Source: a bacterium
GTDB lineage: Bacteria; Blakebacterota; Blakebacteria; Blakebacterales; Blakebacteraceae
NCBI GenBank assembly: GCA_025774205.1
Contig: JALGWK010000002.1
Location: 1-40,220 of the forward strand
Direction of reading: 5' to 3'
Length of the DNA stretch: 40,220 nucleotides
Positions 26,757 through 30,100 of this stretch are shown here, one piece after another. Position 1 is the stretch's first letter. Every line of letters starts with the position of its first letter. The position numbers and the translations under genes are program-made. The notes beneath the pieces were generated by a model. That model searched no databases, was not told where the DNA came from, and saw nothing but the letters and a program-made list of their open reading frames with translations.

Positions 26757-26799
26757 ACGAAAGAAAACGCCGGATGGAGCGAACCCCCCATCCGGCGTT
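26757..26799 (-). terminator. orphan rho-independent terminator (no intact minus-strand gene feeds it)
   Basis: A 12-bp perfect stem, AACGCCGGATGG (26766-26777) / CCATCCGGCGTT (26788-26799), with a 10-nt loop. A T-rich tail (TTTTCTTTCG) lies on the minus strand only. Confidence 0.6.
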
Positions 26800-26865
26800 G
26801 TCGAACGAGAACACTCTTTCCTGGACCGATGCTACTCGGCCGGTGAGACCGCTCCTTCGATCGTG
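26764..26865. repeat. left direct repeat: degenerate copy of the sdhB 3' end plus terminator
   Basis: Collinear with 29165-29267. It shares the perfect 13-mer ACGCCGGATGGAG (26767-26779) and 14-mer TCGGCCGGTGAGAC (26836-26849) with similar spacing (56 vs 54 nt). On the minus strand it encodes TIEGAVSPAE*, versus TIDGAVSPAEQP* at the true sdhB end. Confidence 0.8.
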
Positions 26866-26929
26866 TCAGGCTATCAAGTCGATGAATTGATATAATAAAC
26901 ATAGTGTAATTAATATCACATATTGATAC

Positions 26930-26958
26930 TTGACGCATATGCGACAGCGTAATATTAT
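26930..26958 (+). promoter_or_regulatory. sigma70-type promoter TTGACG-N17-TATTAT for the AbiE operon
   Basis: TTGACG at 26930-26935, a 17-nt spacer, TATTAT at 26953-26958, then an AAGGA RBS before ATG 26995. Flanked by GTAATTAATATC (26906-26917) and GCAATTAATAGC (26968-26979). Confidence 0.5.
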
Positions 26959-26994
26959 AAAACAAGTGCAATTAATAGCAGTAAAGGATATTAA

Positions 26995-27822
26995 ATGCAT
27001 AACATAAGTAATCGCGCATCACTCAAAGGGCTCGGTGAATCTGAACGTGAGATCCTGTCGGCATTGGCCGCGTTGGAACAACCGACACTTTCGGTGGATG
27101 AAGTCCTGGACCTCTTCGACCTGAGCCGTCAGGCGGCAAATCTGATGCTCTCCCGCCTGGCCCGCAAGGGTTGGCTCCGACGATTGCGTCGAGGTGTTTA
27201 TACGATTGTGCCACTCTCCTCATCGTCCAGTCAGCCGGTGGTTGAAAACCCGTTGACCGTAGCAATGAGATTGTTCAAGCCGTGTTACATCTCAGGCTGG
27301 ACCGCGGCCGAACACTGGGACCTGACAGAACAGATCCATAATGTCGTGGTTGTTTACAGTTCCACGCCTCAGCGAAAGTCAATACAGGAGATAGGCGGGG
27401 TGAAGTACCGGATTCGCCGTGTTCCCGAGGAGACCATTTTCGGGACCATCAGACTCTGGTACGGCAGAGTACCTGTTCAGATGGCAAGTCCGGAGCGGAT
27501 GATCATCGATATTCTCAATGCGCCCGAAATGGGAGGGGGCAGCCGTCAGACACTTGATATCGTGCGCGCCTACTGGAGAGGAGCACGGAAGGATCCGGAA
27601 AATCTGATGTCCTGCGCCGAGAAACTGGGGCGGGGGAGTGTATTCAAACGACTCGGCTTTACCGCCGAGTTGTTCGGTGACCCTGATCCCGGGTGGACGG
27701 ATCGATGCCTGCATGGTCTGACGAAAGGGATAGCACTGCTTGATCCTTCCGGCCCCAGAGGAGGGCCGACAGCCTCACGCTGGCGTCTTCGAATCAATGT
27801 CCCCCTGGAGGATGGTTCGTGA
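26995..27822 (+). CDS. abiEi: AbiEi-family antitoxin / transcriptional regulator (COG5340-like)
   Basis: N-terminal wHTH-like region SEREILSALAALEQPTLSVDEVLDLFDLSRQAANLMLSRLARKGWLRRLRRGVYTIVP, followed by the typical PCYISGWTAAEHWDLTEQ. Its stop overlaps the start of the downstream gene (GTGA at 27819-27822). Confidence 0.8.
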   Translation: MHNISNRASLKGLGESEREILSALAALEQPTLSVDEVLDLFDLSRQAANLMLSRLARKGWLRRLRRGVYTIVPLSSSSSQPVVENPLTVAMRLFKPCYISGWTAAEHWDLTEQIHNVVVVYSSTPQRKSIQEIGGVKYRIRRVPEETIFGTIRLWYGRVPVQMASPERMIIDILNAPEMGGGSRQTLDIVRAYWRGARKDPENLMSCAEKLGRGSVFKRLGFTAELFGDPDPGWTDRCLHGLTKGIALLDPSGPRGGPTASRWRLRINVPLEDGS

Positions 27823-29060
27823 TCCCGAAGGCTGAAGTCATGGCTATCGCTGAGGAACTCGAACTGCTCCCCACCACGATCGAGAAGGACTATGTCCTGG
27901 GATGGGTACTGTTCGCTGTCGCGGCACACCCCGATCTAAGTCTCTGGATCTTCAAAGGTGGGACCTGTTTGAAGAAATGCTATTTCGATACCTACCGATT
28001 CTCTGAAGATATCGATTTCACGGTTCCATCTGAGGCTCCATATGATATCGAGGCAATTCACACATCTCTGCAGGAAGTGAGTGGTTGGGTTTACGATCAG
28101 GCCGGTATCGAGTGCCCGGATGATGGGCTCCAGATCTCCGAATCAGTCAACAGGCGGGGAGAGTCGACTTTTCAGGCGAAATTGACGTATCTGGGTCCAC
28201 TCGGGATGCCTCGTGCATCCCGCCAGCGGATCAAGTTCGACCTGACCATGGATGAGATCGTCGTAGACTCCTCAGTACCTCGGGAAGTCTTCCACGGTTA
28301 TTCGGACGGATTACCGTTGGCAGAAATGGTGAGCTGTTACAGTGTCACCGAGATTCTGGCTGAGAAAATACGTGCTCTGTATGAACGAGAGGGGAGAGCA
28401 CGGGATGTATATGACATTGTCAATATCGGTCGAAATCTGCGTGAAGAGATTCCGGACGAGGATTTCCATGCTGCTGTAAATGAAAAGTTCAGGTTCAAGG
28501 ATCTGGAAAAACCCACGGTCGAGGGGATCCTGAGCCGGGTGGATGCGGAGGTTCTGGCACGTGACTGGTCCGAGTCGCTGAAACATCAACTCCCGATGCT
28601 GCCCCCTGTGGAGGAGTATCTCAAAGCTCTGGAAGATATCCTCCGGTGGTACCTCACGGAGGTAGCCCAACCGGAACTTGAATCAGTGCCTGGTGGTGTT
28701 AACGAGACATTAATTCCGCGGATTCCATTCATACAACCCCTGGCAGCCGGCCGTCTGGGGCGTGGACATCCCATGAGTGTCGGCGATTACCCGGCATTGG
28801 TTTTCGGGGGAAGTATGGAGAGAGTCCGGTTCGCGGCCCGAAATCGACTACTTGTGCAGGTAATGTACAAGGGTGTTCCAAGGCTCGTTGAACCGTATTC
28901 ACTCAGAATGCCGTCCACCGGCAAGCTGTTGCTTTATGTCCATGAGGTTCAGCGTGGATATCAGTCAACTGGTCAGATCAAGGCGTTCAAGGTGGCAGAA
29001 CTCGGTCAAGTCAATGTCACCGATCAGGCGTTCTTCGCCAGGTATCGGGTTGAATTGTAG
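27819..29060 (+). CDS. abiEii: AbiEii/AbiGii-family (DUF1814) nucleotidyltransferase toxin with a C-terminal WYL-like extension
   Basis: The NTase motifs are all present: IFKGGTCLKKCY (hGG), RFSEDIDF (acidic dyad), EILAEKIRALYER and ARDVYDI. Residues ~285-413 are extra. Within them, ERVRFAARNRLLVQVMYKGVPRLVEPYSLRMPSTGKLLLYVHEVQRGYQSTGQIKAFKVAELGQVNVTDQAF matches the WYL/SH3-barrel pattern (R.V.PY.L ... hhhY ... h+.F+h..h..h..T...F). Confidence 0.8.
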   Translation: MIPKAEVMAIAEELELLPTTIEKDYVLGWVLFAVAAHPDLSLWIFKGGTCLKKCYFDTYRFSEDIDFTVPSEAPYDIEAIHTSLQEVSGWVYDQAGIECPDDGLQISESVNRRGESTFQAKLTYLGPLGMPRASRQRIKFDLTMDEIVVDSSVPREVFHGYSDGLPLAEMVSCYSVTEILAEKIRALYEREGRARDVYDIVNIGRNLREEIPDEDFHAAVNEKFRFKDLEKPTVEGILSRVDAEVLARDWSESLKHQLPMLPPVEEYLKALEDILRWYLTEVAQPELESVPGGVNETLIPRIPFIQPLAAGRLGRGHPMSVGDYPALVFGGSMERVRFAARNRLLVQVMYKGVPRLVEPYSLRMPSTGKLLLYVHEVQRGYQSTGQIKAFKVAELGQVNVTDQAFFARYRVEL

Positions 29061-29162
29061 GTTGGGCACTTCAACTGTCGGTTGCCACCGGCGGTATCCG
29101 ACAGTCTATCAGGCAATGGCCACAGAATAATATGAGGTTCTCTCAGGGGCTGGAATACAATG

Positions 29163-29201
29163 ACAAAAATACGCCGGATGGAGAGGAACCTCCACCCGGC
29201 G
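29163..29201 (-). terminator. rho-independent terminator of sdhB
   Basis: Stem CGCCGGATGGAG (29172-29183) / CTCCACCCGGCG (29190-29201) with one mismatch. On the minus strand it is followed by TATTTTTGT. It lies 27 nt after the sdhB stop. Confidence 0.6.
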
Positions 29202-29267
29202 ATCGGTCGTGAGTTGATGTCTTCGGACTATGGCTGTTCGGCCGGTGAGACTGCCCCGTCGATCGTG
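29165..29267. repeat. right direct repeat: authentic sdhB 3' end plus terminator
   Basis: See the left repeat. The 13-mer is at 29171-29183 and the 14-mer at 29238-29251. Confidence 0.8.
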
Positions 29268-30100
29268 AACTCGGGCGCTTCGGCGATCCCTTCCCGGCGT
29301 TCGGTGGCCCGTCTCTCCTTCGGCAGGAGACCGACCGGCTTCTGGTGCCGCCGCTTGCCGAGTCGGATGTAATCCCAGACCAGTTCGCGCTTCATCAACT
29401 GGATGGCGCGGGCGGGATCGACTCCCTTCGGACAGACCGCCGAGCATTCTCCGGCGTAGTGACAGCGCCAGGGACCGATCTCGCTCGAGAGGATCTTCTT
29501 CCGTTCCTTGAAGGCGCCGTCCCGGGTGTCGATCAGGTAGCGGTAGCCCTGGGTCAGCGGCATCGGGCCGCTGTAGATATCATCGGTCGCGAGCGTCGGA
29601 CAGGCCGCCATGCAACAGCCGCACTTGATGCAGTAGGCGAACTGCAGGTAGGCGGTCAGGTCGTCGGGATCCTGCCAGTACTGGTCGGTCGGTTCGAGAA
29701 CTTCCTCGACGTCCTCGCGGATGATGCGGGTGTTCAGCTTCAGATGTTTCTCCAGCATCGGGGCGAGGTCGGGCACCAGATCGCGGACGATATCGAAGTT
29801 GGGCAGGGGGGCCACCATCAGGATTTCTTTCGTCAACTCCCGGACCTGGGTGTGACAGGCCAGGTGGGGCTTGCCGTTCAGTAGCATGCCGCACGAGCCA
29901 CAGACACCCATCCGGCATGAGGAACGCCAGGCCAGGGTCGGATCAAGGTGTTCCTTGATGTACCACAGCCCGTCGAGTACCACCATGCCCGGTCCGCAGG
30001 GGACCGTGAAATCCTCGAAATACGGTTCATCATCCCTGGCAGGATCGTAGCGCCTGACACGGAAGATGTAATTCTGAAGCTGTTCAGTCTCGTTGCTCAT
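29228..30100 (-). CDS. sdhB: succinate dehydrogenase/fumarate reductase iron-sulfur subunit
   Basis: Start re-called to MSNETEQLQNYIFRVRRYDP (ATG 30100, GGAGGA RBS). Cluster motifs are CRMGVCGSCG..C, CIKCGCCMAACP and CHYAGECSAVCP. The track ORF (to 30478) overlaps the upstream membrane subunit in another frame. There is a ~45-aa basic/acidic C-terminal extension. Confidence 0.9.
   Translation of the reverse strand: MSNETEQLQNYIFRVRRYDPARDDEPYFEDFTVPCGPGMVVLDGLWYIKEHLDPTLAWRSSCRMGVCGSCGMLLNGKPHLACHTQVRELTKEILMVAPLPNFDIVRDLVPDLAPMLEKHLKLNTRIIREDVEEVLEPTDQYWQDPDDLTAYLQFAYCIKCGCCMAACPTLATDDIYSGPMPLTQGYRYLIDTRDGAFKERKKILSSEIGPWRCHYAGECSAVCPKGVDPARAIQLMKRELVWDYIRLGKRRHQKPVGLLPKERRATERREGIAEAPEFTIDGAVSPAEQP

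Follow-up and report, generated by a model that had tools for sequence, protein, structure and literature searches.

We analysed a window of 40,220 nucleotides from a bacterium of the Blakebacteraceae (GenBank assembly GCA_025774205.1, contig JALGWK010000002.1, positions 1 to 40,220 of the forward strand), in which a self-contained cassette of ~2.2 kb lies between housekeeping genes. The cassette is a toxin-antitoxin / abortive-infection unit of the AbiE family, that is, of the phage-defence type, and consists of an antitoxin gene, abiEi, followed by the gene of a nucleotidyltransferase (NTase) toxin, abiEii. In this toxin the catalytic core is followed by a variable linker and a basic module of 81 residues, which belongs to the WYL superfamily but has diverged within it. 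The two genes and the parts of the toxin are listed here in window coordinates.

26995-27822, + strand: abiEi, antitoxin and transcriptional regulator; 275 aa, ATG start; predicted N-terminal winged helix and C-terminal antitoxicity domain.
27819-29060, + strand: abiEii, AbiEii/DUF1814 nucleotidyltransferase toxin with a C-terminal module; 413 aa, GTG start.
27819-28670, + strand: NTase core of AbiEii, residues 1-284 (DUF1814, pol-beta type), from Pfam PF08843, Foldseek matches to MenT3/TglT and the catalytic residues.
28671-28814, + strand: variable linker, residues 285-332, predicted to be disordered from its low model confidence and low conservation.
28815-29060, + strand: divergent WYL-type (Sm/SH3-like) module, residues 333-413 plus the stop codon, from structure models, Foldseek, hhalign and PADLOC.

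The GTG start of abiEii overlaps the TGA stop of abiEi by 4 nt (GTGA), and this start is backed by residues 2-7 of the toxin, which are kept in homologues. An earlier interpretation made from the letters of this DNA alone, here called the sequence-only reading, had given both open reading frames (ORFs) and their overlap, and had named the products as an AbiEi antitoxin and a DUF1814 AbiEii toxin. All of this was borne out, the identities by matches in both Pfam and PADLOC. In the first protein, Pfam AbiEi_4 matches residues 20-71 with 38 bits (cut-off 25) and the PADLOC model AbiEi PDLC02271 spans residues 11-267 (E 6.7e-71), while the C-terminal part reaches 15.2 bits with Pfam AbiEi_1, under the cut-off of 22.2. 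Judged by these matches, the protein is an AbiEi antitoxin with a winged helix and an antitoxicity domain. In the second protein, Pfam PF08843 covers residues 30-269 (125.2 bits, cut-off 22.5), and the PADLOC model PDLC02317, which has 396 positions, spans residues 1-413 (E 4e-105) and is matched by the tail alone with an E value of 2e-16.

The cassette thus named has the same layout as AbiE of Lactococcus lactis and Streptococcus agalactiae, which is a toxin-antitoxin system of type IV, lately reclassified as type VII: an overlapping two-gene operon with the antitoxin first, a winged-helix AbiEi, the DUF1814 catalytic motifs, a Ser/Thr at the phospho-acceptor position and a promoter with repeated boxes. 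It differs from these systems in that the toxin is ~130 aa longer, owing to the linker and the WYL-type barrel, in that its AbiEi is the long variant of ~275 aa, and in that the window's cassette is known from sequence alone.

The catalytic motifs of the toxin are intact, as the sequence-only reading had it, and they are shared by the family. Residues G47-G48, R60-F-S62-E-D64-I-D66, D141, K183 and R195-D196-x-x-D199 are invariant or nearly so among 52 full-length relatives, and Ser62 is present in all 52 sequences. The same reading had put the end of the core near residue 285, which agrees with the Pfam match stopping at 269 and with the last core helix of the structure model at 264-279. The full-length AlphaFold model (mean predicted local distance difference test score, pLDDT, 85.7; predicted template-modelling score, pTM, 0.85) found MenT3/TglT Rv1045 as its best Foldseek matches (6j7p, 8xhr and 6y5u; E 1e-7 to 2e-6), over ~300 columns, with a target-normalised TM score of ~0.65 and a sequence identity of ~15%. 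The R-x-S-x-D-x-D motif is spaced as in MenT3, so that Ser62 stands at the position of MenT3 S78. The closest structural relatives of the core are therefore MenAT3 (TglT-TakA, Rv1045-Rv1044) and the other MenT toxins of Mycobacterium tuberculosis, which have the same motif and an AbiEi-like antitoxin; the MenT proteins, however, are single-domain toxins of ~290 aa without a C-terminal barrel. A second AbiEii family of PADLOC, of ~260 positions and without the tail, also matches the core strongly.

Beyond the core, the sequence-only reading had described one extra stretch of ~130 residues and quoted three strings from it. The extra length and the strings, which lie at residues 355-362, 368-377 and 387-405, stand, but the tail is not one piece: it resolves into a disordered linker and the 81-residue module. 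The linker is weakly conserved, ranges in length between 30 and 50 aa among family members and has a pLDDT below 50 at residues 306-323 and 325-327. The module (nt 28815-29057 without the stop codon) is sharply conserved and follows the pattern M(D/E)RxR(F/Y)AARNRL…Y.G..RLVEPYSLR.P.TGNLLLYV.E…(I/V)KA(F/Y)KV.E(L/I)…V.(V/I)T…F.PRY.(V/I)EL. Within it R337, R341, N342, E358, Y360, S361, Y373, E376, F405 and E412 are invariant, R363, K388, K391 and R408 are nearly so, and the toxin ends in an invariant E412-L413. The module has a pLDDT of ~85-97 both in a model of the tail and in the full-length model, with a helix at 331-341 and strands at 344-350, 353-364, 371-379, 382-391 and 395-404; a 3-10 turn lies between strands 4 and 5 (DSSP, both models). 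An internal translation start at Met333 was considered and rejected, as this position is M, L or I in homologues and is not invariant.

Core and module carry opposite charges. The core of the window protein has a net charge of -22 and an isoelectric point (pI) of 4.6 (mean of the 52 family members, -8.8 and 5.4), and the module has a net charge of +7 and a pI of 10.3 (mean of the 52, +5.2 and 9.9). The charge is thus split inside one polypeptide, between the acidic core at 27819-28670 and the basic module at 28815-29057, and this is a trend across the family.

The comparison of the tail model with the Protein Data Bank (PDB) identified the fold. The model consists of one helix and a five-strand barrel, and its best 21 Foldseek matches are all WYL proteins, among them the C-terminal domain of DriD with single-stranded DNA (ssDNA) (7tzv), PafBC (6sj9, 9fnd), BrxR (7qfz) and CapW (9c5g, 7tb5); Sm and Hfq proteins follow from rank 22 on. 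Most of the WYL superpositions, including 7tzv, 7qfz, 9c5g and 7tb5, have a root-mean-square deviation of 1.9-2.5 Å over ~80 columns, and those with PafBC and with the DriD entry 9cu3 are looser (7.9-10.9 Å). In a Pfam scan at E ≤ 10, WYL (PF13280) appeared as a weak, sub-threshold match in 7 of 35 tail homologues (best E 0.0088), and one other family recurred among them, in 2 members.

Stronger evidence came from sister proteins. A profile of the module, run against 1.84 billion cluster representatives, retrieved 741 proteins at E ≤ 1e-3, which include longer AbiEii proteins of 435-479 aa (E 1e-14 to 1e-18). In these long AbiEii proteins the segment equivalent to the module passes the Pfam WYL cut-off of 21.8 with 23.7-40.1 bits, and hhalign aligned the window-type module to such Pfam-positive WYL segments with a probability of 99.8% (E 3e-29). 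The assignment of the tail to the WYL/SH3-barrel type had been proposed from the sequence, together with the remark that the literal W-Y-L triad is missing, and both proved right: the corresponding strand reads (N/K)-L-L-L-Y. We conclude that the module is a true, though divergent, member of the WYL superfamily, and that the Pfam WYL model under-detects the window-type AbiEii-WYL subfamily.

Other searches with the module returned little. The alignment by hhalign of a mixed module alignment with a single canonical WYL-WCX regulator (locus L003, 2362-3426) gave no link (probability 0.2%), a lone sequence being a weak target. A fold search of BFVD with the tail found weak matches to uncharacterised phage proteins only, and tblastn against phage genomes found no match. 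Among PDB sequences, bulb-type (GNA-like) lectins matched the string 'EPY.L...GNLvlY' with E ~0.006; the motif, Y.G…EPYSLR…GNLLLY, covers module residues 350-376 (nt 28866-28946). We regard a lectin likeness as chance, since the Foldseek list holds WYL, Sm and Hfq proteins and no lectins; such matches are a trap for sequence-only annotation.

The modest scores of the single protein raise the question of an artefact, in which the tail would be a separate ORF fused to the toxin by an assembly or frameshift error, or the likeness to WYL would be due to chance. The Foldseek E values of 4e-3 or weaker and the failure of Pfam WYL to match the toxin could be read in this way, and split versions with an 81-aa ORF in another frame do exist elsewhere. 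However, 115 of the best 120 homologue clusters, which come from independent assemblies, cover 100% of the 413-aa query in one ORF, and 117 cover at least 98%, with lengths of ~400-427 aa. The full-length PADLOC match, the hhalign result and the predominance of fusions in species genomes, where 55 of the 72 module ORFs also encode an NTase, likewise speak against it. An artefact is effectively excluded, and with it the assembly error that the sequence-only reading had itself named as a possible undoing of its claim.

The subfamily is widespread. The names among the best 120 clusters include Gemmatimonadales, Chitinophagaceae, Alpha-, Gamma- and Deltaproteobacteria and Dehalococcoidia. In a scan of one genome per species, the module was found at 74 loci, in phyla that include Gemmatimonadota, Pseudomonadota, Spirochaetota, Bacteroidota, Acidobacteriota and Chloroflexota, and further in Actinomycetota, Planctomycetota, Patescibacteria and Chlorobium; the closest relatives by module are metagenome-assembled genomes of Gemmatimonadota (85-86% identity), and the analysis judged the source of the window to be probably of this phylum as well. 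A script recovered 72 module-bearing ORFs from these loci, with abiEi upstream of the module-bearing gene in 59. In 55 the module is fused to the NTase, and of these 38 end exactly at the module, 5 have a short and 12 a long extension; 14 lack a full NTase in the same ORF and 3 are cut by contig ends.

In six of the 14 without a full NTase in the same ORF (L022, L025, L028, L030, L048 and L071), the module ORF directly adjoins an NTase ORF of its own. The split layout recurs across independent assemblies and lineages: in the operons L001 (3025-4229) and L002 (3021-4246), which come from independent assemblies, an AbiEi of 271 aa is followed by an AbiEii of 322-329 aa and by an 81-aa ORF in another frame, whose start precedes the NTase stop by 10 nt (ATGGGCCTGA in L001). 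Many 90%-identity clusters consist of proteins of exactly 81 aa. Because such stand-alone ORFs directly follow shorter AbiEii genes in split operons, the module is an autonomous folding unit that is able to work as a separate subunit. At the contig end of L003 (38-4283), a stand-alone 81-aa module ORF adjoins a DUF7986 protein and a minimal NTP_transf_2/Polbeta nucleotidyltransferase; the same stretch encodes two canonical WYL+WCX (PafBC-like) regulators, and the neighbourhood is rich in WYL and NTase genes.

The long forms have 70-90 additional residues after the barrel, with the conserved Cys/His pattern Y..(E/K)C..C.K.F.R…L..HK…G..C.GR.G. This segment is present in the proteins P0212, P0246, P0293 and P0218 and at loci L024, L026, L040, L045, L058, L063 and L075-L078, and a long form occurs in Rhizobium sullae (WP_051336852.1; L079, 2562-3992). 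From its pattern it looks like a zinc ribbon, for which Pfam gave one sub-threshold match (Zn_ribbon_8) among the long forms. The window toxin does not have it.

This breadth settles the novelty of the architecture, which the sequence-only reading had taken to be undescribed for AbiE. The tail is common in some AbiEii proteins, which that reading had itself named as a ground against its claim, as the 120 clusters and 74 species genomes document, the PADLOC model PDLC02317 already covers it, and a passage of Makarova, Anantharaman, Grishin, Koonin and Aravind 2014 (PMC4012209) lists WYL in combination with an 'AbiGII-like nucleotidyltransferase (DUF1814)'. The same source, where it treats this combination, proposes that a ligand-sensing WYL domain regulates Abi systems. 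The Pfam-positive long forms (P0212, P0222, P0246, P0293 and others) presumably represent the architecture listed there, and we infer that the window's subfamily belongs with it. Compared with the long forms, the window toxin is a derived short form that is Pfam-WYL-negative, has FKVAEL in place of YRVDRI and lacks the zinc-ribbon-like segment. The architecture is therefore not new, and the window toxin joins an AbiEii-WYL subfamily of wide distribution, to which computational work had pointed in 2014. What is added here are the exact limits of the module, its under-detection by Pfam WYL, the fused, split and zinc-ribbon variants, and the altered residues of the ligand pocket. Our literature search found no paper testing the function of an AbiEii-WYL fusion, and the recent mechanistic papers on MenT and AbiEii that it returned do not mention WYL. 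RefSeq labels the plasmid homologues plainly as 'nucleotidyl transferase AbiEii/AbiGii toxin family protein', and tools for defence annotation absorb AbiEii-WYL as plain 'AbiEii'.

The basic charge of the module and its conserved Arg, Lys, Tyr and Ser residues suggest that it may bind nucleic acids, and the characterised WYL domains bind ssDNA or single-stranded RNA (ssRNA) and act allosterically (PMC11662680; PMC9122601). We tentatively favour a reading in which the module binds a nucleic-acid or other anionic ligand and regulates the toxin in cis, an idea that the sequence-only reading had also put forward. We narrowly prefer this to a role in gripping the RNA substrate and consider it quite possible, short of probable. 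DriD, PafBC, CapW and BrxR share the helix and the five-strand Sm-like barrel with the module, they act in defence or in the damage response, and their WYL domain binds ssDNA and works allosterically. They are, however, transcription factors with winged helix-turn-helix (wHTH), WYL and WCX domains that dimerise via WCX, and the partner of the module in the window is an enzyme. The toxin is not a wHTH-WYL-WCX regulator: it shares the WYL fold alone, and its N-terminal part is an NTase. A WYL domain joined to a nucleic-acid enzyme is found in the PIF1-WYL helicase of Thermotoga elfii and in WYL1, which works with Cas13d; these bind single-stranded DNA or RNA and stimulate the enzyme (PMC9122601). 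They belong to other enzyme classes, their likeness to the window toxin is limited to the WYL fold, and they are absent among the top Foldseek matches listed.

Several observations weigh against regulation by a bound ligand or against the WYL assignment on which it builds. The best Foldseek E value of the tail model is a modest 4e-3, neither the full toxin nor the tail alone matches Pfam WYL at E ≤ 1, and profiles of the tail, of the mixed module set and of the long-form segment found no WYL chain among PDB sequences. The residues of the pocket differ as well. CapW and BrxR grip their ligand with the Arg residues on either side of the WYL strand (RWHVR), with a Ser in a loop, with an Arg in the 3-10 turn and with a crevice completed by WCX (PMC11662680; PMC9122601), and the Arg of the turn (R184 in CapW and BrxR) contacts ssDNA or sulphate (PMC11662680; PMC9122601). 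In the hhalign comparison with the long forms, the canonical YRVDRI is replaced by F390-K391-V392-A393-E394-L395, and position 394, in the 3-10 turn, is Glu or Asp in 46 of the 52 members. The counterparts of the Arg residues beside the WYL strand appear to be Asn369 (Lys in the window protein) and Tyr373, as placed by a deduced strand register with no printed alignment to a canonical WYL domain; the mapping of ligand residues as a whole is a correspondence of motifs via the long forms, not a residue-level alignment to DriD, CapW or BrxR. The toxin ends at the barrel (…VEL) and has no WCX domain, the domain that in CapW contributes to the ssDNA crevice. The conserved basic residues of the module lie elsewhere, at R337, R341, R355, R363, K388, K391 and R408. 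As the residues that contact ssDNA are not kept, the mechanism of the known WYL sensors is not simply transferable. Finally, AbiE of S. agalactiae gave no protection from phages in E. coli, so a defence role of any one AbiE is not assured.

The same loss of the canonical sensor-pocket residues and of WCX would fit a module that serves as a handle for the substrate, that is, as an RNA-binding arm with which the toxin grips a single-stranded part of tRNA or of another RNA and gains affinity or specificity. Such an arm would make sense of a strongly basic module beside a strongly acidic core, and the long forms add, after the WYL domain, a zinc-ribbon-like segment rich in conserved Lys, Arg and His. 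PIF1 and WYL1, the latter an ssRNA binder that boosts Cas13d and the former with a WYL domain that binds ssDNA, are precedents for an enzyme-coupled WYL domain that binds the substrate (PMC9122601), and AbiEii and MenT toxins act on tRNA with differing target specificity. Yet the AbiEii and MenT toxins characterised to date need no domain of this kind to bind and modify tRNA, the PADLOC AbiEii family of ~260 positions matches the core and does without the tail, and the WYL domains characterised in defence contexts are sensors. We give this explanation serious but somewhat lower weight.

The charges of module and core are also complementary, and the full-length model reaches a pTM of 0.85 despite the disordered linker, which hints that the module is docked on the core in a fixed position. 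This raises a third explanation, in which the barrel would have a structural or protein-protein role, in oligomerisation, in docking of AbiEi or in auto-inhibition with its basic face on the acidic core, and would bind neither a nucleic acid nor a small molecule. The split operons, which imply a stable non-covalent association, the frequent binding of peptides by SH3-like barrels (PMC9122601), the invariant E412-L413 and the loss of the canonical ligand Arg are all consistent with it. On the other side, most of the conserved residues of surface type are Arg, Lys, Asn, Tyr or Ser, a composition typical where nucleic acids or anions are bound, and every characterised WYL domain has a nucleic acid or a nucleotide as its ligand. 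We consider a purely structural role improbable, and retain ligand-dependent regulation in cis as the preferred, tentative reading.

The surroundings of the two genes bear on the control of the operon and on its mobility, and contain the following elements.

26757-26870, no strand assigned: left copy of a flanking repeat, with a minus-strand terminator-like hairpin at 26799-26766.
26903-26919, + strand: operator-like box 1, AGTGTAATTAATATCAC, located upstream of the -35 hexamer; candidate site for binding of AbiEi, read from the sequence.
26930-26958, + strand: sigma-70-like promoter of the abiE operon, TTGACG-17 nt-TATTAT; best site in the scan, 10/12 matches.
26965-26981, + strand: operator-like box 2, AGTGCAATTAATAGCAG, just 3' of the -10 hexamer; direct repeat of box 1, 62 nt away.
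29160-29270, no strand assigned: right copy of the flanking repeat, with a minus-strand terminator-like hairpin at 29201-29172, downstream of the gene for an Sdh/Frd iron-sulfur subunit.

The two 17-nt boxes (AGTGyAATTAATAkCA) bracket the promoter in an AT-rich leader before abiEi (G+C ~0.43). Boxes, hexamers and spacing are conserved in the related locus L004, whose toxin is 83% identical and which has the same left flank as the window; of box 1 it keeps the core AGTG...TTAATA. Since abiE promoters are autoregulated by AbiEi, according to the account of Hampton et al. 2018 given in PMC9122601, it is plausible that the two boxes are AbiEi operators.

The cassette has a G+C content of 0.50-0.57 against 0.60-0.65 in its flanks. 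The left flank encodes an acyl-CoA dehydrogenase and a radical-SAM protein, and the right flank holds an Sdh/Frd-type operon. The flanking direct repeats are imperfect (~110 nt, ~80% identical), each has a T-run after its hairpin, and they enclose 2.4 kb of lower G+C content. The window has no further copy of the repeat's 30-nt core, and in L004 no match to it was found with a 26-nt pattern that allowed up to 3 mismatches. Scans of the window for tRNA genes and for Rfam families were negative, so the repeats are not an att site derived from a tRNA gene and do not represent a known RNA. They look as if the intergenic stretch downstream of the Sdh/Frd operon had been duplicated when the cassette was inserted, or was exchanged by recombination. 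The DNA similarity between L004 and the window is confined to ~26872-29090, that is, to the promoter and the two genes; the behaviour of the cassette is therefore that of a mobile unit within a variable defence hotspot, which the comparison suggests is the site after the acyl-CoA dehydrogenase and radical-SAM genes. In L004 (4279-10813, on a contig shared with L005) the insert at this site is larger and comprises a pair of small ORFs, the two AbiE genes, an HsdM-like methyltransferase of 693 aa (HsdM_N/N6_Mtase) and a helix-turn-helix protein. The methyltransferase next to the cassette is the contextual support for a role against phages.

Taken together, a mechanism can be proposed as follows. 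From what is known of the family, AbiEi would repress the abiE operon via the two boxes around the promoter. It would also bind the toxin and neutralise it by inducing auto-phosphorylation of the active-site Ser62, the equivalent of MenT3 S78 and AbiEii T65; AbiEi-type antitoxins do this with MenT3 at S78 and with S. agalactiae AbiEii at T65 (PMC11375011; bioRxiv 10.64898/2026.01.19.700257). The freed NTase would add nucleotides to the 3' ends of tRNA and so stop translation, as AbiEii and MenT toxins do (PMC11375011; bioRxiv 10.64898/2026.01.19.700257). In the least certain steps, the basic WYL-like module, tethered by the flexible linker or, in split operons, associated non-covalently, would bind single-stranded nucleic acid or another anionic ligand with a pocket that differs from that of the ssDNA-sensing WYL regulators, and would thereby tune the NTase in cis. 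The ligand, an infection- or damage-derived nucleic acid, would then be an extra input on top of control by the antitoxin, as in the proposal of Makarova et al. 2014.

A more specific version makes the module a sensor that keeps the NTase inactive, or inaccessible to tRNA, until an infection-derived ligand is bound. Because the phosphate-contacting Arg has become Glu, and because Asn and Tyr apparently stand in place of the Arg residues on either side of the WYL strand, this ligand would not be the ssDNA to which CapW, DriD and PafBC respond; a nucleotide or a specific RNA end might serve. In this specific form we consider the idea doubtful. It nevertheless concerns how NTase toxins of the AbiE/MenT type are switched on in infection or stress, whereas current work accounts only for their switching-off, by the auto-phosphorylation that the antitoxin induces. 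A large and phylogenetically broad subfamily with a separable basic module is a natural system in which to ask about a ligand input on the toxin, for which the fused, split and zinc-ribbon-extended variants are ready-made constructs. If the module is such a sensor in cis, it would supply the long-missing trigger of AbiE-type abortive infection, independent of antitoxin turnover, and the split operons would be natural two-piece versions of a sensor and its effector.

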